Below are positions 307 through 39,832 of a stretch of 43,089 bases of DNA, one piece after another. Position 1 is the stretch's first letter. Each line of letters starts with the position of its first letter. The notes under the pieces are model-generated. The model searched no databases. It was not told where the DNA came from and was given only the letters and a program-made list of their open reading frames with translations. Position numbers and translations under genes: made by a program. This stretch comes from a virus, in the IMG/VR virus record IMGVR_UViG_3300042934_000110, positions 1 through 43,089 of that record. One strand, written 5' to 3'.

Positions 307-2931
307 ATGGTACAGCGCAATACACAAGAGTTCGATTTACAGGTGCCCGGTACGCAGCAGGTGCAAGGGCTCCAACTCGGCCCCGGCAAGGTTGAACGTT
401 CTGACTATACCGGCCCATCTGCGGGCTCGATTGCCTTGGATGGCCTGCTGTCAATTGCACAACAAGGAGTCTCCCAGAAGCTGGACCAAGAGGTACAGCA
501 GGCGTATCTCAACGGTACGCGGGCCAGGATGGCCGGGGAGTCCCAAGAGGCAGTGGACTCCGACATCTTTAGCGCGCCGTTCGTGAACGGCGGCTACCAA
601 GATGAAGACTACCGCATTGAGCAGGCGAACATGGCCCGCGAGATGTCGGAGCTTATCGCGACCAAGGGGCAGAGCATGTCGCCTGCGGAGTTCGGTAAGC
701 TCGTGCAACAGCGCGCCGGAACGTTCACGGGCAACTTTAGCAAGATGAGCGCCCAGGGCCAAACGCAGGCCATGGCTTCACAAGAGAGCATGGAACGCTC
801 CCTGTTCACCAAACAGGCAGGGGCGTATAGCAAGTGGTCTATCAACGAGGGCGCTAAGCGCTACTTGGTCCAGGGGAATCAAATCATCACCGACCTTGCT
901 GGTTCTGGTGATGACCCCGTGACCTACCAAGCAAACACCGAACGCGCTGCGCTGCTGTACACGGACCTCATGACATCCGACAAGCTCCCGGCAGAGATGC
1001 GGCAGACGGTCGCCGGGCAGTACCTGAGCGCGCTAGTAAACGCCGACCAGCGCCAAGTAGTCGAGCAGCTTCGCGACAGCGGTGCACTCAATGAGATGTC
1101 TTTCGAGGACCGTAAGGCACTGGATACGCAGCTACGGGAGAGCACCACCCGCACCACGGCGTTGGACTCCCTCGGGGTGATTCAGGACAACAGCGCGTTC
1201 GAGGCGCGTGTCGGGCGTGGTGAGGTGGGCGGCGATGAGCTGACCAGCTACATAGTGCGCGAGGTCGAGGCCAAGCGCATGACGTACTCCCAGGCGAAGA
1301 CCCTGCGGATGACCGCCATTAAGGGTATGGCAAACCATGACGACCAAGTGGCCCTGATGTCCGCCATCGGGAACCGTGACCCCGGCACCATTGCAGCGTT
1401 GGGTTACACAGTGTCCGAGGGCCTGGAGGCCATGGATAAGCAGCTTGCCAAGAACGGCGTAAGCGTCACCGAGCGGCTTAAGGCCGGTGTGTCTGCGGGC
1501 CTGTCCTTGGGCGCTATGCCAAAGTCCTTCGGGGACACCATCGGCCAAGGCGTACGCAGCATCGCTGCTACCCCATCCGGGGAGCCCATCCCGGCTGCGC
1601 TGGTGGAATCCATGAACGGGGTTATCTCTACGCTGACCATCGCGGAGCAGAAGAACCCCGGCGCCCGTGCTGTGCTCCTTGCAGCCATGCCGGATGACAC
1701 CAAGGCCACCATGTCGTACGTGCTGGCCCAGCAAGAGCACGGCGTGTCGCCTGAGCAGTCCATCAAAGAGTACACGATTAACCGCGATGCTTTCGCCAAG
1801 CTGGATGCGCTCGACCAAGGGTTGAAGACCCAGACGTTCCGCAAAACCTTGCTCGACCGTGTAGATTCGGAGGTGTACAGCGGCGTCACTGGGCGGCTGG
1901 GGAACTTCCTGCGCGGGGAGTCCAACCTTTCAAGCAACCCCTACCAAGCGGCTGTTATGGGCGCGGCGTTAACCGATGAGCTGACGAACATCACAAGTGA
2001 CCGCAACAACATGGGCCTGAATGCCGATAGCGCACTGGATTTGGCCGTAGCAAACGTGCAGGCCCGTACCATCACAGTCGGCGAGTCCGGGGCGTTTGGT
2101 ACCGGTGAAGTCCGTCGCGGGTTGATTCTGCCCCGTGGTGTTGATGTGGCCCAGGTGTTCGGTTCCACAGACAAACAGCGTATCGGTACTATGTTGTCGC
2201 AGGACTACCCAGCGGTGGCCGAGGGGTTCGAGTCGAACTTCGCGTTCAACAAGGCCACCGGGCGCTTGGAGAATATCCAACTCAACGACAAGGGCCAAGT
2301 GGTGCAGCGTACCGCTATCGACCCCACCGCCATCGGCAAGCGTATCGAGGCAGAGCAGACCCGTATCCTTGACGAGGCGAACGCCGCGCACTTCGGCGCA
2401 GCTATTGACATGGGCGGGCAACCGTTCCGCATCGACGGCGGGAACTCCTACGGCATCCCCGTGCGCATCGCGTACAACTTCCGCAAGGAGTTAACCGGGA
2501 TGGAGGGTCTCCGGTTGGAGGTGTACAAGGACCGCAACGGGCTCGCAGTCGGCGTCGGGCATAACGTGTCCGGGCAGATGAAGGAAGGGCAGAAGATTAC
2601 CCGCGAGCAGGCAGAGCAATGGTACCGCGAGGATACCGACCTCGCCATGCAACAGGGTACCCAACTGGCCCGAGAGCTTGGTGTACAAGACCCCAATGCA
2701 ATCGCCGCCCTATCCGGGGCAGTGTTCCAGCTTGGCGCGGAAGGTTTGAGGAAGCACACCAAGACCGCCGAGGCTATCCGTGCGCGAGACCTAGATGCAT
2801 TCGTGCGCGAGGTTAGTACAAGCGACTGGGCGAAACAAACACCGAACCGCGTTGAGTGGTTCGTACAGAAAATGGCGCCACACTTCTCGGGACTTGGTGT
2901 CCTGAGCAACACAAGCGCCCGCTACCAATAA
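307..2931 (+). CDS. Internal virion protein B with C-terminal lysozyme (GH24-like) domain
   Basis: 874-aa ORF with TAAGGT 6 nt upstream of the ATG. The C-terminal part contains MEGLRLEVYKDRNGLAVGVGHN (Glu-x8-Asp lysozyme-type motif) and ends in a T4-lysozyme-like fold signature. Position matches the peptidoglycan-degrading ejection protein of phiKMV-like phages. Confidence 0.85.
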   Translation: MVQRNTQEFDLQVPGTQQVQGLQLGPGKVERSDYTGPSAGSIALDGLLSIAQQGVSQKLDQEVQQAYLNGTRARMAGESQEAVDSDIFSAPFVNGGYQDEDYRIEQANMAREMSELIATKGQSMSPAEFGKLVQQRAGTFTGNFSKMSAQGQTQAMASQESMERSLFTKQAGAYSKWSINEGAKRYLVQGNQIITDLAGSGDDPVTYQANTERAALLYTDLMTSDKLPAEMRQTVAGQYLSALVNADQRQVVEQLRDSGALNEMSFEDRKALDTQLRESTTRTTALDSLGVIQDNSAFEARVGRGEVGGDELTSYIVREVEAKRMTYSQAKTLRMTAIKGMANHDDQVALMSAIGNRDPGTIAALGYTVSEGLEAMDKQLAKNGVSVTERLKAGVSAGLSLGAMPKSFGDTIGQGVRSIAATPSGEPIPAALVESMNGVISTLTIAEQKNPGARAVLLAAMPDDTKATMSYVLAQQEHGVSPEQSIKEYTINRDAFAKLDALDQGLKTQTFRKTLLDRVDSEVYSGVTGRLGNFLRGESNLSSNPYQAAVMGAALTDELTNITSDRNNMGLNADSALDLAVANVQARTITVGESGAFGTGEVRRGLILPRGVDVAQVFGSTDKQRIGTMLSQDYPAVAEGFESNFAFNKATGRLENIQLNDKGQVVQRTAIDPTAIGKRIEAEQTRILDEANAAHFGAAIDMGGQPFRIDGGNSYGIPVRIAYNFRKELTGMEGLRLEVYKDRNGLAVGVGHNVSGQMKEGQKITREQAEQWYREDTDLAMQQGTQLARELGVQDPNAIAALSGAVFQLGAEGLRKHTKTAEAIRARDLDAFVREVSTSDWAKQTPNRVEWFVQKMAPHFSGLGVLSNTSARYQ

Positions 2932-2940
2932 GGTACACAA

Positions 2941-5900
2941 ATGGCAGGTTCGTTGAGAGTAAAACCGGAGGATCGATTACCTCTGGACGCGTTGCAGAAG
3001 GCGCTGCACCCCGAGGTGGCTACAGGCTTGGACCAGTTCCCGGACGTAGACGGCGGGCCTGCTGGCGTGACGGTGCAGGAGAAGTACCAGCGCATCCAAG
3101 AGCAACCCATTGAGGCTGCCCAGGTCGAGGCTAACGACAGCCTCGCAGACAAGGTAAACGCCGCCGCGCAGGAATCATACACAGGGTACATTCTGGAGGC
3201 TACCGACCGTGCGTTCGAGGGGCAGTACCGCGACTACGATCCAACGTTCCAGGGCTCGCGTAGGGCCTTGGAGCTGGTCCAGCGTATGGGCCTGGAGGCG
3301 TCCGAGGAGAACTTAGAGCTGCTGGGTAGGGCAGGTACCGCCGAGGACCAGTTAGAGATAGCCCAGGGGCTCCAGCAGCACCAAACCAACCAAGAGATAC
3401 TGAGCCGCCACGGCGGTTACGCCCTGGCCTCGGGTATGCTAGACCCCGCGTCATTGGTGGCAGACTTCGCCACGTTCGGTACCGTCAAGGCCCTTAAGCT
3501 GGGGCGCCTTGCCTCGGCTGGTCTGGGTGCCACTGTAGGTACCGGGCTGGTGGGCGCAGCGGACGCAGCGGGCAAGAGTACCACCGGGTTTGACTACGTG
3601 CTAAATGCTGCCCTTATGGGTGGCTTTGGTGCCCTGTTCGGTGGCGGTGGTATTGGCGGTGCAGGTGGTGGCGGTTGGGCAGGTAGTATGCGTATCCCTG
3701 GCACGGACGGCAAGATCGCCCGTGCAGTGAACGCCTTTACGTCGGAGACCGACAAGCTAGCGAAGGCCACCCCAGAAGCTGGGCCGCTCATGTCCACGCT
3801 GGTAGATGACCCTGTGCGCCGAGACGGTCTACTGACCAACAACAACGCAGCGAGCTACCATCGCCGATTTACCAACGAGGCGGACGGGTACATGCAATCC
3901 TATGACTCGATGTTAGAGGACGGTTTGCGCGAGCAGCAAGGGTGGTCGTTTGTGTCCCGCAAGCTGGACCTGTCCGGCAAGTACGGGGCGGCCCGCGATG
4001 ACTTGAACAAGGAAGTGGCGGCAGAGCTGCTGCGGCGAAACGATGAGTTCCAGAAGTTCGGTAACGTGTCACCGGCCCCGCGAGGTAACCCGCTTGTGCA
4101 ACGGTTGGCCGATGAGAGCGACCGTATCCACGCGCGTATCGGGGAGCAGGCCAGAGAAGCCGGTGTACGGGGTTTCGAAGAGTTCACGGCACAGCCTGGG
4201 TACTTTCACCGGAGCTGGAACGACTCCCTTATCCGTGGCATGGATAACGCGGAGAGCGGACTACCTAAACGCCTTATCGCGCAATCCGCCCTAGCGGGTA
4301 TCAAGGGCATTGACGCAGACGATGCAGACGCCATCGCGACCGCGTTGATTCAACGCGTCAAGGACAAGGCGGCAGGCACCCGGTCGGACTTCCTCGGCGG
4401 CTTGGGTAAGACTGACACCGCATTCATCCGAGAGGCGCTGGAGCAGGCGGGTGTAGGGCAAGGCAGGCTCGATAGCATCATGTTCAAGATCGAGCAGAAG
4501 GCGTCGGACCAAGGCACCACCAAGTACGGTAAGCATCGCCTGAGCTTCGACATGACCGCCAGTATCAAGGGTGCGGACGGCAACATCTACCGCATGACGG
4601 ACCTGATCGATACCGACCTCGACAGGGTTATGGAGAACTACACCAGCAGCATGGCAGGCCGCATGGCGCTGGCTAAGGCCGGTGTGGCTGCGGATGACGC
4701 GGGCCTGGAGTTGTTCAAGCGGAATTACCTTGAATCAATCAAGACACTACCCCAGGCGCAACAGCAGGACTTGCTGTTGCAACTGGACGGCCTACTTGGT
4801 GACTTCACCGGCAACCGCCCGGAACCAAACGTACTAGGCCCTGTCGTGCAGCGGGTCAAGGCCCTAGCAGACGCGACCATGCTCTCTGGCTCCGGGTTGT
4901 GGCAGGTTGCAGAGTACAGCACCATCGCCGCCCGGCACGGCCTGTACGAGACTGGGAAGCAATTTATGAAGTCGTTCCCCGGCATCCGTAACGTGTTGAA
5001 CAACGCGAGGACTAACCCGGACTTGGCGGACGAGTTGCGCACTGTACTGCACCTCGACCTAGCCCGTGATATCCGGGTGCGTCCATGGAAGCGTCAACAC
5101 GACGTGAACTTGGCCGCAGGTGACACAGTGCTAGACCGGCTCCTGCACGCGGGCAAGCAGGCGGTACCGTACCTCAATGCCATGAAATACGTGCACGCCA
5201 ACCAAGCGCGCCTGAACGCCAATCTCGTACTAAACAAGATGGCCCGCGCCGCTAAAGGTGACGCCAAGGCGTTGGCGACTATCAAGGCGTACGCGCCCGA
5301 TATCGACTGGGCGAAAGTACAGGCCGCAATGCAGGCTAATGTTACATACAGTGGTAAGAACGCGTCGGCTATGAACTGGGCCGGATGGTCGCAGGACGCT
5401 ATAGATGAGACGATGAACGTGGCCCTGCGCATGATGGACGACACCCTACTTTTCGGCCGTCCAGGCCAAGGGGCATCGTTCGCCCGCTCCGCTGTAGGCC
5501 AAGTACTCGGCCAGTTCCAGTCGTTCGTTTCCTTCGCCCACAACAAGACACTACGCGGCACCCTCCAAAACGGCGGGCCGCGTGCCCTCGCCACCGTGCT
5601 CGCCTTTCAGTACCCGATGACCTTCCTAATGGTATCGGTGAACGAGGCGCGCAAAGGTGACTTGGATTTGTCGGACAAGGGTTTGCAGAAGGTCGCAAAG
5701 GGTGCCATCGGGTACACAGCCGGTTTGGGCTTTATCAGTGGCGCGGCGAGTATCGCCGGGCTGACCGGTGGCCGCGCAGGTATGTCCGTTCCCCTCACAG
5801 GGATCATGGATGCACCGGGGCGTGCCCTCGGTGGCGCGAACAAGATGTTTAACGGGGAGTTCCGCGAGGGGTCTGCCGATATTGGTAAGGCCGCAACGCA

Positions 5901-5967
5901 GGTACTTCCGTTCATAAATGCAATGCCGGGCACTGCCATGGTGCTAGATGCCTGGAAAGGTGAATAA
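2941..5967 (+). CDS. Internal virion protein C (large ejection/core protein)
   Basis: 1008-aa ORF directly after the lysozyme-domain protein and before the tail fibre. It has a Gly-rich hydrophobic segment (GGFGALFGGGGIGGAGGGGWAG). Assignment rests on size and synteny. Confidence 0.75.
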   Translation: MAGSLRVKPEDRLPLDALQKALHPEVATGLDQFPDVDGGPAGVTVQEKYQRIQEQPIEAAQVEANDSLADKVNAAAQESYTGYILEATDRAFEGQYRDYDPTFQGSRRALELVQRMGLEASEENLELLGRAGTAEDQLEIAQGLQQHQTNQEILSRHGGYALASGMLDPASLVADFATFGTVKALKLGRLASAGLGATVGTGLVGAADAAGKSTTGFDYVLNAALMGGFGALFGGGGIGGAGGGGWAGSMRIPGTDGKIARAVNAFTSETDKLAKATPEAGPLMSTLVDDPVRRDGLLTNNNAASYHRRFTNEADGYMQSYDSMLEDGLREQQGWSFVSRKLDLSGKYGAARDDLNKEVAAELLRRNDEFQKFGNVSPAPRGNPLVQRLADESDRIHARIGEQAREAGVRGFEEFTAQPGYFHRSWNDSLIRGMDNAESGLPKRLIAQSALAGIKGIDADDADAIATALIQRVKDKAAGTRSDFLGGLGKTDTAFIREALEQAGVGQGRLDSIMFKIEQKASDQGTTKYGKHRLSFDMTASIKGADGNIYRMTDLIDTDLDRVMENYTSSMAGRMALAKAGVAADDAGLELFKRNYLESIKTLPQAQQQDLLLQLDGLLGDFTGNRPEPNVLGPVVQRVKALADATMLSGSGLWQVAEYSTIAARHGLYETGKQFMKSFPGIRNVLNNARTNPDLADELRTVLHLDLARDIRVRPWKRQHDVNLAAGDTVLDRLLHAGKQAVPYLNAMKYVHANQARLNANLVLNKMARAAKGDAKALATIKAYAPDIDWAKVQAAMQANVTYSGKNASAMNWAGWSQDAIDETMNVALRMMDDTLLFGRPGQGASFARSAVGQVLGQFQSFVSFAHNKTLRGTLQNGGPRALATVLAFQYPMTFLMVSVNEARKGDLDLSDKGLQKVAKGAIGYTAGLGFISGAASIAGLTGGRAGMSVPLTGIMDAPGRALGGANKMFNGEFREGSADIGKAATQVLPFINAMPGTAMVLDAWKGE
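5336..5358 (+). promoter_or_regulatory. Candidate phage-RNAP promoter, copy inside the internal virion protein C gene (CTAATGTTACATACAGTGGTAAG)
   Basis: 19 nt are identical to 35276-35294 and 20 nt identical to 35203-35222. Confidence 0.5.
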
Positions 5968-8280
5968 ATGTCCCAAACCCCAACTACCGAAGACCTATAT
6001 GAGGGGGACGGTGTACAAACCGTCTTCGCCCTGACCTTCAGCTACATTGATGCCGACGAGGTGTTCGTAACGGTTAACGGGGTTAATACTCCATATACCT
6101 GGGTGGCCGGCAGCACCGCGTCTGTGCAACTTAGCGCGGCACCTGCGGACGGTACAGTGGTGCGGGTGTTCCGTAACACCAAAGCGTTCACCGTCCGCCA
6201 CGAGTTCGCAGGCGGCGTGCCTTTCCTGCCCCGCTATGTGGACGAGAACAACCGCCAGCTGTTATACGTTGCGCAGGAGACTGTCGAGGTTGCCAACGAG
6301 GCGCTGGAACAGACGCTGATTAACATCGGCATCTCAGACGAGGCGTTGTCGCTTGCGCAGTCGGCAGCCCTCGCCGCCGCCGCCGCCCAGGCGTTAGCAA
6401 CCGATGCTAACGCAGCGTCCACCACCGCACTGGATGTGGCTAACGCGGCATCTGACCTTGTTGGCGCACAAGCTGCCCTTGTGACCTTGGCTGTGGATAC
6501 TGCGCAGGCAGCGGACCAGAAAGCCACCGAGGCATTGGAGCTGGTTAACGAGGCAGGTGTTGCGAGCTTCAATACGCGCACTGGTGCCGTGGTCCCCGAG
6601 GCGGGTGACTACACAGACGCACAGATTACCTCTGGTGGTGGTACTGTGGCTACCAAGTTCGCGGCCCTGGCTGCGTCTGGGCATGTCGGTACCCTCGGGG
6701 CGCTCAACGAAAGCCAGCTCAATGACACTAACATCGCCTCTGGGCGGTACGCTGTCGTGGCCGCTGGGCTTGGCCTTCTGCCAATCAACGTGAACAGCTA
6801 TCTCGACGTGTATGACAACGCGTCAGCCGGGTTCGCCCGCCAGCGCGTTACCCCCGTAACCTCTAACCGAGAGTTCACCCGTAACTGTGTGTCCGGGGTG
6901 TGGCAGGGCTACATCGAGCACATCACTACCGACGCATCGTTCGTGGCGCACAAAACCGCCTTACGAGCAGTGCTGAAAGGTTCCGTCCAGGCAGTGACCG
7001 TTCTCGGTGACGCGGCTGCCGGCGATGGCGGCGGCGCGACGTACTACTACGACGCTGCTGATACCACATCTGCGGATAACGGCGGTTCTATCATCGTCGG
7101 TACGGATGGTGGACGGTGGAAGATTACCGACCTTGCGAACGCTACCGTGTTGGTGTTTGGCGGTAAAGCCGACAACAACTTCGATAACTCCCCAGTTGTA
7201 CAGCGTATGCTGACTGCCGGACTTCGCGAGATTGTGTACGGCCCAGGGGTGTACATGCACCGCTCGCCTATCACCATCCCCCAAACCACCAACTTGGCGG
7301 TTCGTGGTTCCAGCTTCCGACGCACGCAAATAACCTCCACCGCTGCGGTGGGGTTCGCGACGTACAGCTATCAGCGGGCATCCGGTGCCGGTGGTACTGT
7401 GACGACCTTCGATAAGCTGGCGTTCGTCTGGTCTGGTACCGCCCGTGCCGCCGGGTCCGCAGCAATCAAGTACTACGGTTTCAGTGACGCCTTATCGGAT
7501 AACTGGTTCCGTACTGAGGATTGCACGTTCCAGAACTTCGAGGCAGCACGTAACGCTAAGTGGGCCGGGCAATGCTACAGTACCCGCGACTTCTTTGCGA
7601 ATAACCGGTACGACAACTACATGTTACGCGGCTGTTCCTTCTGGTACTTCACGGAATGCATGTCCTTTAGCCCGACGTTCATATTCGCACAGGACACTAT
7701 CCACGATGCCTTCTCTAACGGGTTGTTTATGGATCAGTGTCACAACATCACAGCCGCTAACGAGTGCCTCTTTATCGAGGGGTGGCAGGCGGTGTTTATC
7801 GATCAATGTGGTTTTGACCTGGGCTCTGGTGGTGCGGCGGCGCTGTATTTCAACTGGTGCCAAGACGTATACGTGGACGAGTGTTTCATCTCGTCTAACG
7901 GCGTAGCTGACCGCGTTGGTGTTGTGTTCGTGAACTCCCACACCGGTGGTGTGACCAAGAGCACCCTTGTCAATAGCAAGATCGGTATCACTACCTCGCC
8001 TCCGGCTGGGATGGGTACTCATATTGTCATTGACGGCAACAAGTTCGAAGGCAACCGCGACAACGATGTACTCATGTACACCGGGAGCAAGGCGAACAAG
8101 GTTGTCAACAACCACTTCCAAACCGTGCCGAGTCGCACAGGTAGCAACTTCGAAGTGTACGCGAACACACCCGGCACTGATGGCAACATAATCGCACACA
8201 ACACCTTCCGGGGCACGGCTTACACCCTGTTTACCGGTAGCAACTCCATCACATCCCCGAACCTCTTCGGGGTGTTCTAA
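5968..8280 (+). CDS. Tail fibre/tailspike: T7 gp17-type N-terminal adaptor plus right-handed beta-helix (pectate-lyase-like) depolymerase domain
   Basis: The N-terminus MSQTPTTEDLYEGDGVQTVFALTFSYIDADEVFVTVNGV resembles the T7 tail-fibre N-terminal domain. It is followed by an Ala-rich coiled segment. VLVFGGKADNNFDNSPVVQRMLTAG and many Asn/Gly/Cys-ladder-like repeats are typical of pectate_lyase_3 tailspikes. Confidence 0.85.
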   Translation: MSQTPTTEDLYEGDGVQTVFALTFSYIDADEVFVTVNGVNTPYTWVAGSTASVQLSAAPADGTVVRVFRNTKAFTVRHEFAGGVPFLPRYVDENNRQLLYVAQETVEVANEALEQTLINIGISDEALSLAQSAALAAAAAQALATDANAASTTALDVANAASDLVGAQAALVTLAVDTAQAADQKATEALELVNEAGVASFNTRTGAVVPEAGDYTDAQITSGGGTVATKFAALAASGHVGTLGALNESQLNDTNIASGRYAVVAAGLGLLPINVNSYLDVYDNASAGFARQRVTPVTSNREFTRNCVSGVWQGYIEHITTDASFVAHKTALRAVLKGSVQAVTVLGDAAAGDGGGATYYYDAADTTSADNGGSIIVGTDGGRWKITDLANATVLVFGGKADNNFDNSPVVQRMLTAGLREIVYGPGVYMHRSPITIPQTTNLAVRGSSFRRTQITSTAAVGFATYSYQRASGAGGTVTTFDKLAFVWSGTARAAGSAAIKYYGFSDALSDNWFRTEDCTFQNFEAARNAKWAGQCYSTRDFFANNRYDNYMLRGCSFWYFTECMSFSPTFIFAQDTIHDAFSNGLFMDQCHNITAANECLFIEGWQAVFIDQCGFDLGSGGAAALYFNWCQDVYVDECFISSNGVADRVGVVFVNSHTGGVTKSTLVNSKIGITTSPPAGMGTHIVIDGNKFEGNRDNDVLMYTGSKANKVVNNHFQTVPSRTGSNFEVYANTPGTDGNIIAHNTFRGTAYTLFTGSNSITSPNLFGVF

Positions 8281-8289
8281 GGAAGTATC

Positions 8290-8580
8290 ATGGCAGCTAA
8301 GCAAAGTGTGCTTGCAGAACTGCACGCGCTGCTGGCCGGACAAATGATCGACGAGATTAACTGGTATCGGGAGAATGAAATCCCGGTACCAGCCGCCGAT
8401 AAAGCAGCGATTGCAAAGTTCCTCAAAGACAACAGTATTACTTGCGACCCGGCAGACGCTGGGGACTTGGAGCGCTTGCGTGACGAGTTCAAAGCGAGTT
8501 CACAAGCCCGCCGAGAGAAGGCTAAGCAAGCCTTGGCACTCAGTACGGAAGACATAATCGGATTGTACGGGGCGAACTAA
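8290..8580 (+). CDS. Terminase small subunit (phiKMV type, 96 aa)
   Basis: Small ORF immediately upstream of, and overlapping (TAATG), the large terminase. GGAAG RBS. Size and position are typical. Confidence 0.7.
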   Translation: MAAKQSVLAELHALLAGQMIDEINWYRENEIPVPAADKAAIAKFLKDNSITCDPADAGDLERLRDEFKASSQARREKAKQALALSTEDIIGLYGAN

Positions 8581-10367
8581 TGGACACACGCGCACGTTGG
8601 GCAAAGGCCCAGCTTGTGCGGGAGATGTACCCGGAGTTCGTGGACTTCTGCCGTGACGCCTTTAACTACATCGGGTTCTCCCTGACGTGGATGCAGGCGG
8701 ACATCGCAATGTTCATGCAACACGGACCCGCCGAGCAAATGGTACAAGCCCAACGCGGCGAGGCCAAATCAACCATCGCCTGTTTCTACGGCGTGTGGGA
8801 ATTGATACAAGACCCGTCCAAGCGGATTATGTTAGTGTCGGGTGCAGAGGATAAGGCTAAAGAGAACGGAATTCTCATGAAACGCCTGATCATGCAATGG
8901 GATGTACTCGATTACATGCGCCCCGATAAAGGCGCAGGGGACCGCACGTCCGACCTTGAGTTCGACGTACACTGGTCCCTCCGGGGTGTTGAGAAGTCTG
9001 CGTCGGTTAACTGCCTGGGCCTTACCGGCTCCTTGCAGGGCTACCGTGCAGACGTATTGATCCCGGACGACATCGAGACCACCAAGAACGGTCTAACGGC
9101 TACAGGGCGCGAACACATTGCGCTCCTGTCCCGCGAATTCAGCTCGATTGTGACCCACGGTCGCATCATGTACCTGGGCACCCCGCAGACGCGGGAATCC
9201 ATCTACAACGGTCTGCCGCGCCGGGGTTACACTGTGCGCATCTGGCCTGGGCGGTTCCCATCCCTTGAGGAAGAGGAACGTTACGCCGAGTACTTAGCCC
9301 CGAGCATTGCCGAGCGCATCACCCTCCTGGGTGAGAAGTGCCGCAGCGGTAAGGGTCTCGACGGCTCCCGTGGCTGGTCCACTGACCCAGAGCGGTACAC
9401 CGAAGGCGACCTGTGCAAGAAGGAACTAGACCAAGGCCCCGAGGGTTTCCAGCTCCAGTTCATGCTTGACACTACCCTGTCGGATGCTATGCGTCAACAG
9501 TTGAAGTTGCGCGACCTTATTATCGGCGATTTCAGCATCGACAACGTACCCGAGCGCCTGTCCTGGGCAGCAGACAAAAAGCTGCGCTTGGAGATTCCAC
9601 AGGACTTCCCGTTAGCCAAGGCAGAGATGTACCTGCCTGCATTTATATCCGAGCACTTCGCCCCGCTGCAATCCATCACCATGACCGTTGACCCTGCGTC
9701 TGACGGCGGCGATGAGCTTGCGTTTGCGATTGGCGGTGTGGTCGGGCCGTACATGCATCTTTTGGCTGTGGGCGGCTTCAAGGGTGGCTTCGCAGAGGAC
9801 AACCTAGAAAAGCTCGTGCAGCTCGTTATACAGTTCGGCGTACGCGGTGTGCTTGTAGAGCGCAACATGGGCGCGGGTGCTGTAACGCAGCTCATCCAGA
9901 ACTACTTCAACAGCATTGACCCAGTGACCGGCAAACGCCGCGTGCAGGGCTGTGGTGTCGATGAGCGCTGGGCCAGCGGGCAGAAAGAGAAGCGCATTAT
10001 CGACACCTTACGTCCAATCATCCAGCGCCATCGCCTAGTTGTACACCGGGCCGCCCTGGATATGGACTTGGAGATGTTGAAGCAGTACCCCATGGATAAG
10101 CGCAGCACTCGCTCGTTCTTCCACCAGCTGCACAGCATCACCACAGATAAGGGCTCGCTTGAGAAAGACGACCGCCTGGATGCTGTGGAAGCACTCGCCC
10201 GCGAGCTTGTTGGGTTCCTTATTGTTGACGAGGAACTGGAACAACGCAAGCGCGAAGTAAAGGAGTTCAAGGACTTCTTGAATGACCCTCTAGGCTCTGC
10301 ATCCCGCAAGCCTACGCCACAAGGCACGAAACGTTCACACCGCGCCATCAAGCGCAGGGGCATGTAA
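8580..10367 (+). CDS. Terminase large subunit
   Basis: 595 aa. Has a T7 gp19-like Walker A variant (QAQRGEAKS), LIPDDIE (Walker B-like) and a C-terminal nuclease region. Synteny supports the call. Confidence 0.9.
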   Translation: MDTRARWAKAQLVREMYPEFVDFCRDAFNYIGFSLTWMQADIAMFMQHGPAEQMVQAQRGEAKSTIACFYGVWELIQDPSKRIMLVSGAEDKAKENGILMKRLIMQWDVLDYMRPDKGAGDRTSDLEFDVHWSLRGVEKSASVNCLGLTGSLQGYRADVLIPDDIETTKNGLTATGREHIALLSREFSSIVTHGRIMYLGTPQTRESIYNGLPRRGYTVRIWPGRFPSLEEEERYAEYLAPSIAERITLLGEKCRSGKGLDGSRGWSTDPERYTEGDLCKKELDQGPEGFQLQFMLDTTLSDAMRQQLKLRDLIIGDFSIDNVPERLSWAADKKLRLEIPQDFPLAKAEMYLPAFISEHFAPLQSITMTVDPASDGGDELAFAIGGVVGPYMHLLAVGGFKGGFAEDNLEKLVQLVIQFGVRGVLVERNMGAGAVTQLIQNYFNSIDPVTGKRRVQGCGVDERWASGQKEKRIIDTLRPIIQRHRLVVHRAALDMDLEMLKQYPMDKRSTRSFFHQLHSITTDKGSLEKDDRLDAVEALARELVGFLIVDEELEQRKREVKEFKDFLNDPLGSASRKPTPQGTKRSHRAIKRRGM

Positions 10368-10585
10368 TGGATATCAAAGACGTTGTTATTGACAGAGCAG
10401 CGACCGCTAGCCCTTCGCTTGGGTACCTGGGCATCTGGCTCTCGGGCATGACCATAAGCAATTGGGTCGCGGTGCTGACTGGTGTACTCGTGGTCTGCCA
10501 AATCGTTAAGACGGTGGTAGAGCTGCGCAACCTGCGGGCTGCACGCAAAGAGGCCGAACATGTCACTCAAAAGCAGGCTAGTTAA
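10367..10585 (+). CDS. Holin (two-TMD, pinholin-like)
   Basis: 72 aa with two hydrophobic segments (LGYLGIWLSGMTI, WVAVLTGVLVVCQIV) and a charged C-terminus. TAATG overlap with terminase. It overlaps the start of the SAR endolysin. Confidence 0.75.
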   Translation: MDIKDVVIDRAATASPSLGYLGIWLSGMTISNWVAVLTGVLVVCQIVKTVVELRNLRAARKEAEHVTQKQAS

Positions 10586-11057
10586 TCTCGGTGCGACCGG
10601 CGCTGTACTGCTGGCTGCCACCTTCCTCGGTCCAATCGAAGAACTACGTACAGTCCCCTACCAAGACATTGGGGGCGTTAATACGTGGTGCTACGGCCAA
10701 ACGGTAGGCATCCCCAAGGCGCAGTTCACTGTCGCCGAATGTGATGCAGACCTACTGCGTTCCGTTAGCCGGTACACCGAGGCCATCAAGCCGTACACCG
10801 CTGGGGCACCCGCCCCGGTGGTAGCGGCCATGGTGTCCGTGCAGTACAACACGCAAGCCCCTGGCGCGCCGCATGCTCGCTTCCTAGAGCCCCTGGCGCG
10901 TAAGGACTGGCGGGCAGCCTGTGCCGCGATTACAGCCCCTTGGAAGGGCAAGTACGGCGTTGCCCAGGGGTTCAAGGCTACGGTCAAAGGCAAGCCCTCC
11001 AAGGGCCTGGAGAACCGGCGCGCCAAGGAGTTCAAGCTATGCGTATCGGGGTTGTAA
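10560..11057 (+). CDS. SAR endolysin (GH24 lysozyme with N-terminal signal-arrest-release segment)
   Basis: The N-terminal weakly hydrophobic Gly/Ala-rich segment LVNLGATGAVLLAATFLG is followed by EELRTVPYQDIGGVNT, matching the Glu-x8-Asp-x5-Thr catalytic triad spacing of SAR lysozymes. Confidence 0.85.
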   Translation: MSLKSRLVNLGATGAVLLAATFLGPIEELRTVPYQDIGGVNTWCYGQTVGIPKAQFTVAECDADLLRSVSRYTEAIKPYTAGAPAPVVAAMVSVQYNTQAPGAPHARFLEPLARKDWRAACAAITAPWKGKYGVAQGFKATVKGKPSKGLENRRAKEFKLCVSGL

Positions 11058-11380
11058 TCGGCGCCTTTATGGTGCTGCTGGGCCTGCTGTGTGGGGCCTC
11101 ATGGTACGCCCTGGGGCAGCACACACGGGCCGTCCAGGCCGAGGCTTTGGTAACGGACCTGTCGGGTAAGCTCGACGCTGCCAAGGCACGCACAAGCCGT
11201 ATCCAAGCCGCTGTGCTCACTGTGGAGGCACAACGTAATGAAGCGCAACAGAAGCTCCGCAAGGCTCTTGAGGGCAACCGGGGGTGGGCTGATAGCCCTG
11301 CTCCTGGGCCTGTCTCTGACGAGCTGTGCAAGCGTCTCAGATGTACCGGAGTTCATCCCGTGCCAACACCCGCAGGTTGA
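11039..11380 (+). CDS. i-spanin (Rz-like)
   Basis: ATG at 11039 with AAGGAG 8 nt upstream. N-terminal TMD (MRIGVVIGAFMVLLGLLCGASWY), then a coiled-coil periplasmic domain. The upstream part of the 10940 ORF overlaps the endolysin and lacks an RBS. Confidence 0.8.
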   Translation: MRIGVVIGAFMVLLGLLCGASWYALGQHTRAVQAEALVTDLSGKLDAAKARTSRIQAAVLTVEAQRNEAQQKLRKALEGNRGWADSPAPGPVSDELCKRLRCTGVHPVPTPAG

Positions 11381-11489
11381 TCTATCGACTAACGGCGGGT
11401 ACGCACAGGGGCTGCTGGACTACTCCACAGCCCTCGACACATGCAATGCAATTAACGGGTTAATACCCACCACCCCAAGCAAGGAGTAA
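11238..11489 (+). CDS. o-spanin (Rz1-like lipoprotein), overlapped architecture
   Basis: Starts inside Rz in another frame and extends beyond it. Has a signal sequence plus lipobox LSLTSC, and the mature part is Pro-containing. Confidence 0.8.
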   Translation: MKRNRSSARLLRATGGGLIALLLGLSLTSCASVSDVPEFIPCQHPQVDLSTNGGYAQGLLDYSTALDTCNAINGLIPTTPSKE

Positions 11490-11495
11490 CACCCC

Positions 11496-11687
11496 ATGGC
11501 CGGTATCGTATCCGCAACCAAGGTCCAAGTTGAAACCCTGTACCGCGCAGTGCGCAAGCTGGAACTGGAGCTGCGGTTCTACAACCAGGGCACCGAACAA
11601 CCGGGCACCACGCCTGCTTCGCGTGCCGCTGCAATCGATGCACTGGTGGACGCTGCTGTGGCAGCCATTGCCCCAGTGAACACCTAA
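11496..11687 (+). CDS. Hypothetical protein (63 aa, helical)
   Basis: ORF with AAGGAG 9 nt upstream and T/C-ending codon preference like the virion genes. No family recognised. Confidence 0.6.
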   Translation: MAGIVSATKVQVETLYRAVRKLELELRFYNQGTEQPGTTPASRAAAIDALVDAAVAAIAPVNT

Positions 11688-11727
11688 CCCACAACGCGGG
11701 CGGCTACGGTCGCCCTCTGGAGCACAT

Positions 11728-12408
11728 ATGAGTTTCGCTACCGCAACACCCGCCCAACGCCGCAAGGTGCGTGACGAGGCCACTAAGGCTATGTTCGCCG
11801 CACAACCATTCGCACAAAACGCCGTAACCCCTACCGCTGCCGAGAGCACTGCCGTAGGTACTGTCCTGGCGGGCCTGAGCACCGCGCTGGCAGATGTGGG
11901 CGTAACCGCTGCCCTGCCTGCAACCCAAGCCGTGGTATCCGATGGCGGGAACGTCACGGTCAAGAACTCCGCAGGCACTGTATCCAAGACCGGTGTGGCG
12001 ACTGTGGCGGCTAACGCTATCACTGGCGTAGCCCTGGCGAGCACCGAGGCCATCCTATCGAACGGTGGCACCGCAGTCATCCAGAACTCTGGCGGGCAGT
12101 TCCAACGCTCTGGTACTGCCGCTGTAGCCGCAGGCGTCGTCACTAACCTGACCCTGCCCGCCGACGTGGCCTGCGTAGTGAACGCTGGTGCCGTGGTTGT
12201 GCGGAACTCTGCGGCCACAGCCATAACAGGCACGCACACTGCTGCTGTAGCTGCGGGCGTGCTGTCACAGGTGACCCTGGCGAGCACTGTTGCCCCTGTG
12301 ATCAGCGGCGTAAAGATCAACGCTACGTCGGTGACCGGTACCGGGAACTTCGCAACCATCACCGTAACGAACGGCGTAATCACTGCAATTGTACTGAGCG
12401 CAAGCTAA
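11728..12408 (+). CDS. Hypothetical Ala/Thr/Val-rich protein with four tandem ~40-aa repeats
   Basis: 226 aa with GGAG 7 nt upstream. Residues ~63-223 form four units beginning LPATQAVV / LASTEAIL / LPADVACV / LASTVAPV, each containing an (S/N)xGG..V.V(K/Q/R)NS core. Codon usage resembles highly expressed late genes. Confidence 0.75.
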   Translation: MSFATATPAQRRKVRDEATKAMFAAQPFAQNAVTPTAAESTAVGTVLAGLSTALADVGVTAALPATQAVVSDGGNVTVKNSAGTVSKTGVATVAANAITGVALASTEAILSNGGTAVIQNSGGQFQRSGTAAVAAGVVTNLTLPADVACVVNAGAVVVRNSAATAITGTHTAAVAAGVLSQVTLASTVAPVISGVKINATSVTGTGNFATITVTNGVITAIVLSAS

Positions 12409-12422
12409 CCCATAGGTGACCC

Positions 12423-12842
12423 ATGACCACGATTGCGTATCTCGATGGAGTGTTCGCGTACGACTCGCGTATCAGCTCTGGCAGCGACATCATTACGGAC
12501 AAGTACCAGAAGAAACAAACCCGTGGCGGTGTGACGTTTGTGCTCGCAGGCTGCGTGCCTGACTTTGAGCCGTTCATGCAAGCGTACTTGGCTGGCTGCA
12601 AGGTCTCCGGCTTGAACGTACGCGCATTCGTGGTCAAGGGTGACCGCATCACACAGGCAAGCGCTTGTGACGACGACATGTGGGAAAGCCCTGTGCATAA
12701 AGGCGAGCCCATGGCAATCGGCTCTGGTGCTGCGCATGCTCTAACCGCAATGGACTGTGGGTTATCTCCTGTCGAAGCTGTGCGTATGGCAATGAAGCGT
12801 GATGCATGTACCGGTGGCACGATCAGAACGTACCGGGTGTGA
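12423..12842 (+). CDS. Minimal HslV / proteasome beta-subunit-like Ntn hydrolase (139 aa)
   Basis: By-eye alignment to E. coli HslV recalled from memory. MTTIAYLDG vs MTTIVSVRRNG (Thr directly after the initiator Met). DKYQKK vs KGNVKK. FVLAGCVPDFEPF vs IAGFAGGTADAFTLF. PMAIGSGAAHALTAM vs LIAIGSGGPYAQAAA. C-terminal DACTGGTIRTY vs DICIYTNHFHTI. Confidence 0.7.
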   Translation: MTTIAYLDGVFAYDSRISSGSDIITDKYQKKQTRGGVTFVLAGCVPDFEPFMQAYLAGCKVSGLNVRAFVVKGDRITQASACDDDMWESPVHKGEPMAIGSGAAHALTAMDCGLSPVEAVRMAMKRDACTGGTIRTYRV

Positions 12843-12854
12843 CAAGACGAACGG

Positions 12855-12881
12855 AGTACCGTGCAGCAGATGTACGGTACT
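12855..12881 (+). other. Hairpin (8-bp stem AGTACCGT / ACGGTACT, 11-nt loop) just after the last right-end gene
   Basis: Perfect inverted repeat read directly. There is no U-run, so it is not a canonical intrinsic terminator. Confidence 0.45.
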
Positions 12882-12971
12882 TGACAGGCTGGAATGGGAG
12901 TGCATAGGCGGCTTAATTTGGAGCGCTCGTGCGTCAGGCTCTCCGACCCCGATCACGCCGAGTCTTCCCCG

Positions 12972-12994
12972 TAGGCCCTAGGCCAGGGTAGGCC
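12972..12994. repeat. Three closely spaced TAGGCC hexamers
   Basis: cgTAGGCCcTAGGCCagggTAGGCCatcg, read directly in the non-coding region. Confidence 0.6.
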
Positions 12995-13034
12995 ATCGTC
13001 GATGCTGCGGGAGATTTGTGCTTCCATGATGGTT

Positions 13035-13063
13035 AGTGTAGCTAGGTCTAGCCAGGGTGTCAA
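13035..13063 (-). promoter_or_regulatory. Candidate leftward sigma70-like promoter (minus strand TTGACA-17-TACACT)
   Basis: The + strand reads AGTGTA(13035-13040)-17 nt-TGTCAA(13058-13063). It is the only good minus-strand promoter-like site I saw in non-coding DNA, and it could be chance. Confidence 0.3.
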
Positions 13064-13160
13064 CACCTGTTTGCATCTTTCTTCATCGGAGTTGCTGTGA
13101 GGTTCCACCTTCGGTGGTGTCGCTGTCCAGGGTTGGCTGTGCCTGGGTGTGTCTGCGTGC

Positions 13161-13215
13161 TGGCATACCTTTTTGTGTTTGCTTCACTGTGCGTTCGGGG
13201 TGGCATACCTTTTTG
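13161..13215. repeat. Direct repeat TGGCATACCTTTTTG x2 with 40-bp period, inside an A-depleted, T-rich non-coding tract
   Basis: Identical 15-mers at 13161-13175 and 13201-13215. The surrounding ~13050-13390 has very few A residues on the + strand. Confidence 0.8.
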
Positions 13216-13389
13216 CACATTGGATTGCCTGTCTGCTACCTGTCTTCAATCCTGTCATTACCTAGAGGTTGCTCTATCAGTCTTCTCTTTCTCTCTGCTT
13301 CCCTTCCTTGCGTCAGGTAGGGTCCCCAATCCCTAACCGTGTCGATCAGGTAGTAGCTCCTTCGTCTCTCCTCCGCTTCTCTCCACAGT

Positions 13390-13412
13390 ATGTTACATTA
13401 CGGAGAGGGTTG
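13390..13412 (+). promoter_or_regulatory. Degenerate copy of the ATGTTACAT...GGAGAGGG motif (possible weak or vestigial phage-RNAP promoter)
   Basis: atgttacattacggagagggttg shares ATGTTACAT and GGAGAGGG with the copy at 35276-35306. Confidence 0.3.
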
Positions 13413-13470
13413 ATCTAGAGCCTTTGCTAGAGGATGCTGAGACGCTAGCGCAATGGATTGCTCATAGGGC

Positions 13471-13499
13471 TTGACGGGGAGTTAAGAGTTAACTACAGT
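13471..13499 (+). promoter_or_regulatory. Sigma70-like early promoter (TTGACG-17-TACAGT)
   Basis: -35 at 13471-13476, 17-nt spacer, -10 at 13494-13499. Preceded by TAGGGC as at 14780 and 17227, and followed by the AACGGAG RBS and a small ORF. Confidence 0.65.
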
Positions 13500-13526
13500 G
13501 CGCGTACCACAACGGAGAAAACGTCA

Positions 13527-13646
13527 TGAAAGCAGCCATCTTAGTACTCTGCGCAATCAACCACAGATGGATGACTCCCGAAGGCGCGTACCGTATCAAG
13601 GTAGGCTTTGCTGACGGTGAGTTCACACCAGTTAAGTTCCTCTAAC
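13527..13646 (+). CDS. Small hypothetical early protein (39 aa)
   Basis: ATG with ACGGAG 8 nt upstream, 28 nt after the promoter -10. Sequence is MKAAILVLCAINHRWMTPEGAYRIKVGFADGEFTPVKFL. It falls below the ORF-track size cutoff. Confidence 0.4.
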
Positions 13647-13668
13647 CAACACAGCTAGGAGATACACC

Positions 13669-14382
13669 ATGACTACACAAGATGCAGTGCAACAGGTACC
13701 GGCCCAATCCGTTTACACCTTGGAGCTGGCGGTAGGTGAAGAGGTAGCGCACAAGGAGTACATGGATTACACCAGAGCTAAGCAGGCTTACGACGATGCT
13801 GTGGCGGATACGCTGGCCCTAACGCTGGTAGGTGTGACGCGTGTCGAGTTATTCAGCGAAGCAGTGGGCAGCCTGGATAAGTGGGTGCGTGATGAGCCTG
13901 CACTCGCAGGCCCTGTGCCGCCTGCTGGTGGGGAGCCGGAAGTGTTGTTAGAGGTTGAATATTTGGGCGATGGCGGCGGCGGTTGGAATGAAGTAACCCC
14001 AGAATGGTTCGAGAAAGCAAAACAGTCCGAGTATTACAGGACGCGGGTTATCTATTCGCCAGAGCACGTCACCCGGCTACAGGCTGAGGTCGGCCGCCTC
14101 GATCGAGAATCCCAGAATCTGAGCAATCAACTCGGTGCATGTGACCGAGAGCGCAGGGCCTTCAGGGACGAACTGACCAAGGCGCGGGAGTTGTTGACCG
14201 GTAGTTTGCGTACTGGCGATGGGTATGACGCGCTGATCGAGGAATACCTCTCCAACCAATCCGCGCCAGCCGACAAGGTGTGTGAGCACAACCGCCAAGT
14301 GTACAACGTAATGGAAGATCACCACACGTGCGTAGACTGCAATGCACGTGGACCATTCCCAGCTAAAGGGATGAAACCATGA
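13669..14382 (+). CDS. Hypothetical early protein (237 aa; coiled-coil, C-terminal Cys/His cluster)
   Basis: AGGAG RBS. C-terminal CEHN...HHTCVDC may bind metal. No family recognised. Confidence 0.75.
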   Translation: MTTQDAVQQVPAQSVYTLELAVGEEVAHKEYMDYTRAKQAYDDAVADTLALTLVGVTRVELFSEAVGSLDKWVRDEPALAGPVPPAGGEPEVLLEVEYLGDGGGGWNEVTPEWFEKAKQSEYYRTRVIYSPEHVTRLQAEVGRLDRESQNLSNQLGACDRERRAFRDELTKARELLTGSLRTGDGYDALIEEYLSNQSAPADKVCEHNRQVYNVMEDHHTCVDCNARGPFPAKGMKP

Positions 14383-14627
14383 GCCTGTCTAGCACGAGCT
14401 TCAACACCGCCAGTATGGTGGCTAAGGTCAAGATAGCAATGCAGGTCGCCACGTACGACGGGCACGCAGAGTTGTACGGGCGCAAGGGTAAGCTGTTGAT
14501 GCAGGTGCATTACCATCCGGGTTGCCGCCAGCCTTTCCAGTTCTTCAACGCCGACCAAGGCGATGTGTCTGCACTCGTTCTTGCCGGTGCGCGGCAATTC
14601 CACGCCAGGGTTGGTGCGTATGCTTAG
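14379..14627 (+). CDS. Hypothetical early protein (82 aa)
   Basis: ATGA start/stop overlap with the preceding gene. Confidence 0.65.
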   Translation: MSLSSTSFNTASMVAKVKIAMQVATYDGHAELYGRKGKLLMQVHYHPGCRQPFQFFNADQGDVSALVLAGARQFHARVGAYA

Positions 14628-38779: not shown

Positions 38780-39778
38780 ATGACTGCACTTACCAGCCTG
38801 ACCCGCCCACAATGGGGTGGCCCTAACTCCGACGTGGACATCCACATCGAAGAACACCTGGGTATCGTCGATAAGACCTTCGCGTACAGCTCCCAACTCG
38901 CGAACGTGATGAACATCCGCAACCTGCGCGGCACCAACACTGCGCGCATTGACCGTTTCGGTGACGTGAAGGTCGGTGGCCGCAAGTCCGGCGAAGCCCT
39001 GGTACAGTCGAAGGTTGTGAACGATAAGTTCAACCTGACCGTCGATACCGTGCTGTACCTGCGCCACGAGTTCGACAAGTTCGACGACTGGACCACCGAC
39101 CTGCAATACCGCAAGGAAATCGCTGAACTCGACGGCACCGCCATGGCGAAGCAGTTCGACCAAGCCTGCCTTATCCAGGCCGCCAAGTGCGCCGACTTCG
39201 TAGTACCTTCTGGCCTGGAAGGTTCGTTCAACGCGGGTATCTTGGTGCCTGTCACCGTTAGCGGCCTGCCTGCCAACGGCGAAGCAGACGCCGACCTGCT
39301 GGTACGTGCCCACCGCAAGGGCCTGGAAGCCATGATTGCCCGCGACCTGGGCGACAAGGTATACAGCGAGGCCGTTACCTACATGGACCCCGGTATCTTT
39401 ACCATCCTCTTGGAACACAAGAAGCTGATGAACGTGGAGTACCAAGCCATGGGTGGCGTGAACGACTACGCCCGCTCTCGCATCGCTGTGCTGAACGGCG
39501 TTAAGGTTGTCGAGACCCCACGCGTTGTAACTGCTGCCATCACCGACAACCCGCTGGGCTCCGCGTTCAACATGACCGCCGCCCAAGCCCGCCGCCGGAT
39601 GATTACCATCATCCCTTCTTTGACCCTCGTTACCGCGCAAGTGCATGCACTGACCGGCGACTACTGGGAAGACAAGCGGGAATTTTCTTGGGTGCTGGAC
39701 ACCTTCCAATCGTACAACATCGGCCAACGTCGCCCTGACGCTGCCTCGGTTGTCGATGTGACCGTGACCAACGCGTAA
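38780..39778 (+). CDS. Major capsid protein
   Basis: 332 aa with AAGGAA RBS and strongly biased codon usage. Followed by the only canonical intrinsic terminator. Synteny supports the call. Confidence 0.9.
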   Translation: MTALTSLTRPQWGGPNSDVDIHIEEHLGIVDKTFAYSSQLANVMNIRNLRGTNTARIDRFGDVKVGGRKSGEALVQSKVVNDKFNLTVDTVLYLRHEFDKFDDWTTDLQYRKEIAELDGTAMAKQFDQACLIQAAKCADFVVPSGLEGSFNAGILVPVTVSGLPANGEADADLLVRAHRKGLEAMIARDLGDKVYSEAVTYMDPGIFTILLEHKKLMNVEYQAMGGVNDYARSRIAVLNGVKVVETPRVVTAAITDNPLGSAFNMTAAQARRRMITIIPSLTLVTAQVHALTGDYWEDKREFSWVLDTFQSYNIGQRRPDAASVVDVTVTNA

Positions 39779-39784
39779 GACCCT

Positions 39785-39818
39785 AGCCCGTCCTCCTAAC
39801 CGAGGGCGGGCTTTTTTC
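39785..39818 (+). terminator. Rho-independent terminator after the capsid gene
   Basis: AGCCCGTCCTC-ctaacc-GAGGGCGGGCT (11-bp stem with one G-U pair) followed by TTTTTT. Confidence 0.85.
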
Positions 39819-39832
39819 GTATATGGTGACCC

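Follow-up and report, generated by a model that had tools for sequence, protein, structure and literature searches.

The 43,089-nt stretch analysed here, referred to below as the window (IMG/VR virus record IMGVR_UViG_3300042934_000110, positions 1 to 43,089), is a complete phiKMV-like (Krylovirinae) podovirus of the Pseudomonas type. Its gene at 12423–12842 encodes a protein of 139 amino acids (aa) whose membership in the PPH family of proteasome-like N-terminal nucleophile (Ntn) hydrolases is near certain. We consider it probable, at roughly 0.6, that this protein works as an N-terminal-threonine hydrolase of the proteasome type, is produced late, is accessory to the phage and has no dedicated unfoldase. 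A previous reading of the DNA from its letters alone (the sequence-only reading) had proposed a minimal HslV/proteasome-like Ntn hydrolase. As regards the identity of the protein this interpretation held, on the strength of profiles, a structural model and the conservation of the N-terminal Thr. As regards novelty it did not: the PPH family was described in 2021, and IMG and GenBank already annotate such proteins. In IMG this very protein carries the name “ATP-dependent protease HslVU (ClpYQ) peptidase subunit”, and GenBank phage annotations of homologues read HslV-family peptidase, proteasome subunit beta or nucleophile aminohydrolase. The window protein adds a member to a described and widely annotated family and is not new as a find.

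The gene and the codons on which the argument depends are the following.

12423–12842, plus strand: gene of the PPH-family proteasome-like Ntn hydrolase, ATG start, 139 aa plus stop
12414–12419, plus strand: Shine-Dalgarno-like AGGTGA, 3 nt ahead of the ATG, as read from the sequence
12426–12428, plus strand: codon of Thr2 (proteasome Thr1), invariant in 72 homologues and aligned with Thr1 of beta5i
12462–12464, plus strand: codon of Asp14 (proteasome/HslV Asp17), an invariant column aligned with Asp17 of beta5i and HslV
12510–12512, plus strand: codon of Lys30 (proteasome/HslV Lys33), at least 90% conserved and aligned with Lys33 of HslV and beta5i
12549–12551, plus strand: codon of Gly43 (oxyanion-hole Gly47), at least 90% conserved and aligned with the Gly of SGCAAD in beta5i
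12720–12728, plus strand: codons of Gly100-Ser101-Gly102 (proteasome Gly128-Ser129-Gly130), aligned with GSG of beta5i and HslV
12798–12803, plus strand: codons of Arg126-Asp127 (proteasome Asp166 region), aligned with HRD of beta5i

Read directly from the open reading frame (ORF), the product begins MTTIAYLDG. Besides the Shine-Dalgarno-like motif, the MTTIA that opens almost all homologues supports the ATG at 12423 as the start. Besides the MTTI start, the segments that had been pointed out earlier are all present, namely DKYQKK at residues 26–31, VLAGCVPDF at 40–48 and AIGSGAAHALTAM at 98–110. Two antisense ORFs (12380–12820 and 12405–12737, both on the minus strand) overlap the gene, and we infer that they are by-products of the GC content of ∼59%.

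The sequence-only reading had named a profile match to the proteasome fold as a check on its proposal, and such matches were found with PHROG_1040, with the family profile against beta5i and with PF00227 among the homologues. PHROG_1040, “peptidase HslV family”, matches the window protein over its whole length (E = 1.1e-31). Searching 5.8 billion proteins yielded 76 homologues, several of which carry the source names proteasome subunit or HslV peptidase; nearly all are 135–158 aa long, and the near-full-length ones are 34–91% identical. The family is large, as 418 clusters (50% identity) match at E ≤ 1e-30, and matches of this extent go well beyond chance. The profile and all statements on conservation are based on 72 aligned homologues, and the survey of starts on 218 retrieved relatives. 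PF00227 (Pfam Proteasome) was matched by 43 of the 72 at E ≤ 0.01. Against the PDB, the family profile aligned end to end with proteasome beta5/beta5i (E = 1.7e-12), with the N-terminal Thr on Thr1. Aligned to E. coli HslV by hhalign, the family pairs D14 with Asp17, K30 with Lys33, LAGCVPD with FAGGTAD and AIGSGAAHA with AIGSGGPYA.

A single-chain AlphaFold2 model built from the family alignment is confident (predicted local distance difference test, pLDDT, 95.9; predicted template modelling score, pTM, 0.89) and has the proteasome-beta fold. Foldseek agrees with this: the best matches in the PDB were 20S beta5, HslV (1g3i, 1m4y, 6kui) and the bacterial proteasome homologue BPH (5ovs), all with a probability of 1.00. 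In a library of viral structures the model resembles many phage proteins, some of them named proteasome subunit, Ntn hydrolase or HslV. The fold proposed earlier is in good agreement with the model.

Invariant in the 72-sequence alignment are M1-T2-T3-I4-A5, D14, G100, A106, D111, G113 and R126, and K30, G43, G102 and D127 are conserved in at least 90% of the sequences. When the family is aligned with beta5i by hidden Markov model and with HslV by hhalign, the conserved residues fall on Thr1, Asp17, Lys33, Gly47, Gly128-Ser129-Gly130 and Asp166. Homologues keep the N-terminal Thr, as the earlier proposal implied: besides its invariance in the alignment, M-T-T starts are seen in 206 of the 218 relatives, and V-T-T in 2 more. 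The other ten comprise four with an internal MTTI, where the start was probably mis-called, four with single substitutions (MST, MTI, MTC, MTTY) and two that begin otherwise, one of them truncated. Compared with its 73%-identical orthologue on the metagenomic contig L001, the window gene has a ratio of nonsynonymous to synonymous substitution rates (dN/dS) of 0.15, indicating purifying selection. The conserved catalytic residues and the purifying selection strongly suggest, at the level of sequence, that the protein is catalytically competent.

In the mechanism that we propose, the initiator Met has to be removed first, and we infer that host methionine aminopeptidase strips it, which would expose the Thr as N-terminal nucleophile. 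Together with Asp14, Lys30, Gly43, Ser101 and Asp127, this Thr would form a standard proteasome-type active site, giving a threonine peptidase or amidase. The fold is pared down to the core of the beta-sandwich; a short H1, H3 and H4 are present, H2 is not. The gene being the final one of the late transcription unit, behind the structural and lysis genes, the protein would be made late. As it has no dedicated AAA+ unfoldase, its substrates would be limited to peptides, unfolded or loosely folded proteins, or a specific cleavage site, and it would not be an ATP-driven degradation machine.

The conservation also bears on whether the protein is a protease at all. Instead, it could act as a ligase or transpeptidase in the manner of connectase or as an amidohydrolase on small molecules, or it could be catalytically idle and serve as a scaffold or decoy, given that Ntn/proteasome-fold proteins include the ligase connectase and many amidohydrolases, that part of the first helix pair is lost in PPH as it is in connectase, and that the GenBank name is sometimes “nucleophile aminohydrolase”. 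However, the full catalytic set (Thr1, Asp17, Lys33, Gly47, Ser129, Asp166) is under purifying selection, which argues against a dead decoy, and the sequence is best matched by subunits of the beta5 type, which are catalytically active. We therefore find a non-protease role quite unlikely.

In the predicted model, as assigned by DSSP, a single 13-residue helix (45–57) lies between strands 37–43 and 66–72, followed by H3 (103–111), H4 (116–126) and, right after H4, the last strand (134–138). In the hhalign alignment a gap of ∼20 residues faces HslV residues ∼70–90, which correspond to helix H2. According to the model, helix H2 is absent and H1 is shortened. This agrees with the earlier remark that the protein is about 35 aa shorter than HslV and lacks its helical insert, E. 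coli HslV being 176 aa long, a difference of 37 aa. In HslV, the apical helices H1/H2 form the docking surface that faces HslU (HslUV structures such as 1G3I). An ATPase partner had not been noticed nearby, and tblastn with E. coli HslU indeed found no HslU-like gene in the window (best E = 0.095), nor at E ≤ 0.01 in any of 88 related loci. Among the clustered neighbours of PPH genes in the context survey described below, no recurrent ATPase was found other than the terminase.

Fold and active site are common to the window protein and HslV, so the phage could supply an alternative proteolytic core for host HslU, or for another host AAA+ unfoldase, and thereby redirect ATP-dependent degradation. 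As no phage ATPase is encoded, the unfoldase would have to be host-derived. Yet the missing H2 and the short H1 are the very helices by which HslV faces HslU, the profile fits proteasome beta5 better than HslV, and Fuchs et al. (2021) found no co-occurring AAA+ partner; we regard such a role as most unlikely. As a matter of membership, an HslV orthologue working with HslU was rejected, there being no hslU, no H2 and no match to an HslV model.

Several observations weigh against our reading of the protein as a working threonine hydrolase made late. Taken alone, the window protein had no match in Pfam even at E ≤ 10 and is below the gathering threshold of PF00227. No match was obtained by phmmer against PDB sequences or by BLASTP against E. 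coli HslV, and NCBIfam gave no HslV match but a partial one to archaeal proteasome-beta (E = 0.0056, 16 bits vs. a cut-off of 224). With the protein alone below the Pfam and NCBIfam thresholds, the assignment leans on profiles and predicted structure, and judged by its sequence the protein is a homologue within the superfamily but falls short of a canonical proteasome beta subunit. In the model, one face of the sandwich is more exposed than in relatives that form rings, owing to the loss of H2 and the short H1, and the term “self-compartmentalising”, which the sequence-only reading had considered, is for that reason not established. The late timing in the window phage is drawn from gene position only. 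Finally, a search of the literature since 2021 on the function of PPH or phage HslV returned only the defining paper, and no report of a function or biochemical activity of PPH.

Every long ORF of the window is on the plus strand. The single-subunit RNA polymerase (32829–35273) is 83% identical at the aa level to that of Pseudomonas phage phiB1_1 and 76% to that of MR5 (Autographiviridae, Krylovirinae), and megablast of 11000–14500 against GenBank phages gave no match. The surroundings of the PPH gene contain the following features.

8580–10367, plus strand: terminase large subunit
10367–11489, plus strand: holin, endolysin and spanins
11496–11687, plus strand: 63-aa ORF behind the spanins, no PHROG match
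11728–12408, plus strand: 226-aa repeat protein, the upstream neighbour, listed for context only (PHROG_9732, E = 7e-46), 14 bp from PPH
13133–13212: pair of 40-nt tandem repeats holding the terminator-like hairpin
13145–13170, plus strand: terminator-like hairpin, the first downstream of PPH and the sole terminator-like site found in 11300–13800
13471–13499: sigma70-like site

No terminator-like sites were found between the lysis/spanin genes and PPH, and the hairpin at 13145–13170 is likely the end of the late transcription unit. Since it is the first such site after the lysis genes, PPH would be the last gene of that unit; this position, the shared orientation and the spacing of 14 bp to the preceding gene suggest late expression in the window phage. 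For the PPH homologue gp143 of PAK_P3, published RNA-seq data show a 14-fold rise from early to late (log2 +3.8, adjusted p 1e-8; PMC4933390 table S5). Behind the PPH gene, ∼830 bp (12843–13668) hold no long ORFs, with a lower GC content of 0.53 and a negative AT skew, and the early genes come next. This region is probably where the genome physically ends, or else it holds the terminal repeat and early promoter of an assembly that is circularly permuted. The 63-aa ORF has a counterpart of the same length at the same place in L001 (dN 0.07), and ORFs as long as it stand at the same place in phiB1_1 and MR5, matched by length and position alone.

phiB1_1 and MR5, the closest isolates, carry no PPH, and its place is taken by different small genes or an SGNH hydrolase. 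From this we conclude that PPH is accessory cargo and dispensable for this phage type; the right-end position marks an accessory-gene hot spot in Krylovirinae. The right-end cargo of phiB1_1 (41025–41503; L008) and of MR5 (38949–40265; L009) consists of small ORFs in both, one annotated “NAD/FAD-utilizing enzyme”, and MR5 additionally has an SGNH/GDSL hydrolase there. The metagenomic relative L001 shows the same layout (2400–6420, corresponding to 8580–12842 of the window). Its terminase and endolysin proteins are ∼98–99% identical to those of the window (dN 0.01, dS 0.3–0.6), whereas PPH is only 73% identical (dN 0.18, dS 1.2). This far greater divergence of PPH points to exchange of the right-end cassette by recombination and not to simple divergence. 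In a more distant podovirus, Pseudomonas phage HHBS14_1, PPH likewise lies behind the lysis cassette.

These properties would suit a counter-defence or host-takeover protease that cleaves specific host proteins late, such as defence effectors or sensors that late phage proteins set off. PPH belongs to the variable cargo at the right end and is missing from the nearest isolates, its divergence from the L001 allele far beyond that of the flanks is the pattern of an exchanged accessory cassette, and its position differs across phage types. However, there is no known target and no match to PADLOC or to an anti-defence family, and a protein made last in the cycle would come too late against most defences. 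The strong sequence conservation (MTTIA, ALTAMDCG) is also unlike that of many fast-evolving anti-defence proteins. On balance this role seems unlikely to us.

The sequence-only reading had also suggested that the protease processes the neighbouring repeat protein. This 226-aa protein has about four 40-aa repeats rich in Ala, Val, Thr and Gly; their number varies, the L001 orthologue being only 144 aa long. Homologues are found in podoviruses of Pectobacterium, Dickeya, Escherichia and Pseudomonas. In the Pectobacterium PhiM1/Peat1-like phages and in Escherichia Lidtsur they lie near the right end (∼39–40 kb of ∼43 kb), just behind the large terminase gene. Pectobacterium, Dickeya and Escherichia are missing from the list of PPH matches, and among the matches listed no Pseudomonas phage was common to both searches. 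Processing of the repeat protein is therefore disfavoured, since among the matches listed the two genes do not co-occur outside the lineage and the length of the repeat protein varies independently.

PPH homologues were found in 81 phage records, in 108 IMG/VR stretches and in Pseudoalteromonas. We surveyed the gene context in 80 IMG/VR loci together with isolate and metagenome loci, calling ORFs and clustering the neighbours, which gave 50 groups at 90% PPH identity. The IMG/VR loci are the best 80 matches of one peptide pattern, and closer relatives are over-represented among them. The order NinG, late regulator, lysis genes, PPH, small and large terminase, portal, MuF was found in 26 of the 50 groups; in L056 and L073 the terminase had been mis-called on the opposite strand, and correcting these two by hand brings the number to 28. 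PPH lies within 5 kb of same-strand terminase, portal or head genes in at least 35 of the 50 dereplicated loci (∼40 once unclassified loci are reviewed by hand) and is co-oriented with its neighbours in all loci inspected. It stands inside the structural gene module in nine groups, three of which (L047, L059, L090) show the order portal-MuF-PPH-scaffold-major capsid, as does Vibrio phage 2.095.A. This position, between portal/MuF and scaffold/capsid, is the usual slot of the prohead protease. In L002 and L042 PPH lies amid head-completion genes, and in the PAK_P3-type myoviruses amid DNA-metabolism genes. The podovirus type, as in the window, makes up three of the 50 groups. The contigs L047, L059 and L090 are of siphovirus type, and PPH occupies 5001–5441 both in L090 and in L092 (Vibrio phage 2.095.A, MG592664).

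A gene of PF18894, “putative phage metallopeptidase”, adjoins PPH in 17 of the 50 groups (29 fetched loci), usually directly behind it. This neighbour carries an HExxH motif, belongs to PHROG_513, where it is labelled transposase, and lies upstream of the terminase genes; an example is L007 6437–7060 (phiAH14a gp59). The window has no such gene.

Heads of the T7/phiKMV type assemble without proteolysis. A prohead protease of the window phage was rejected, as such heads need none and the nearest relatives lack PPH; it stays a lead for other PPH-bearing phages. In a broader form, PPH could be a virion or head morphogenesis protease that trims or removes scaffold, MuF-type or other head proteins, or is itself packaged, making it a threonine-type counterpart of the prohead proteases or of the site-specific processing enzymes Prp and Rrp. 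The head-module positions in nine of the 50 groups, including the prohead-protease slot in three of them and in Vibrio phage 2.095.A, are consistent with this, and so are L002 and L042. A parallel is provided by Rrp, a mobile-element proteasome homologue for which specific cleavage has been shown, namely N-terminal trimming of the ribosomal protein bL27 (preprint 10.64898/2026.08.10.744006). The window PPH, however, is far from the capsid genes of a head that needs no proteolysis and that its closest relatives build without PPH. In most loci PPH lies upstream of the terminase genes and not inside the head module, the PAK_P3 copy is surrounded by DNA-metabolism genes, and inspection by eye of the N-termini of scaffold and capsid in L090 revealed no obvious common motif. 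A role in morphogenesis is thus very improbable.

One might also suspect that the PPHs are site-specific late processing enzymes and not bulk degraders, forming an Ntn class of maturation proteases that trim head, scaffold or MuF-type proteins or a defined host protein. This would parallel Prp and Rrp, and the window copy would be a mobile version acting on a late substrate. We offer this as a speculation that is unlikely to hold.

Taken together, we favour the reading of the window protein as a late-made, accessory threonine hydrolase with a proteasome-type active site. Proteasome-fold proteases have long been regarded as cellular, and PPH is the one mainly viral family among them. To this family the window contributes the clean and complete genome of a podovirus for which PPH, at the end of the late operon, is plainly dispensable, which makes the phage a convenient system for a knock-out or a Thr2Ala exchange. 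What goes beyond the 2021 description is that PPH genes are overwhelmingly found in late operons beside packaging and head genes, some of them in the slot of the prohead protease. Should this context reflect function, PPH would represent a catalytic class new among phage maturation enzymes; otherwise it is probably a further accessory gene for interaction with the host. The remaining value of the find lies in the role of PPH in the phage and in this pattern of late-operon and head-module context.

Among known systems, HslV (ClpQ) shares with the window protein the N-terminal MTTI (MTTIA here, V/MTTIV in E. coli) with Thr directly behind Met, the residues Thr1/Asp17/Lys33 and both the GxxxD and the GSG motif. 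The overall fold is likewise common to the two, with a Foldseek TM-score of 0.71 when the length of the 139-aa query is used for normalisation. HslV differs in that the window protein has no H2, a shorter H1, 37 aa fewer and no adjacent hslU; the hhalign probability is only 65%, and the profile fits proteasome beta5 better. The 20S subunits beta5/beta5i (PF00227) gave the best profile and structure matches, aligned end to end with the active-site residues in register. In contrast to the 20S beta subunits, the window protein has neither a propeptide nor an alpha-subunit partner, is ∼60 residues shorter and shows 14–21% identity in structural alignments.

BPH of Thiobacillus denitrificans (PDB 5OVS), a group-I bacterial proteasome homologue, resembles the window protein in having no known unfoldase and is matched in structure with a probability of 1.00. 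BPH is larger (∼185 aa), however, and keeps H2, a long acidic pore loop and heptameric double rings. Rrp (SP_1145 of S. pneumoniae TIGR4) is, like PPH, a mobile proteasome-fold Ntn hydrolase without an ATPase partner; it differs in being Anbu-like, with extra domains and a Gram-positive host, and is likened to PPH by description only.

The PPH family itself was described by Fuchs et al. (2021) as proteins of ∼140 residues from Caudovirales and their proteobacterial hosts, which lack H2 (a feature common only to PPH and RPC), a propeptide and the C-terminal S12/H5 and retain the catalytic triad. For none of the new homologues did the same study find an informative gene context or an AAA+ partner. 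Nothing of substance sets the window protein apart from this family, save that this copy lies at the right genome end of a phiKMV-like podovirus, a lineage not singled out in that description. With 139 aa (the median of the 218 relatives is 144 aa), it has no propeptide, C-terminal extension, H2 or AAA+ partner and carries the catalytic triad plus Gly47. Its genome, a Krylovirinae-like podovirus of the Pseudomonas type, falls within the tailed phages and prophages of Proteobacteria in which the family occurs.

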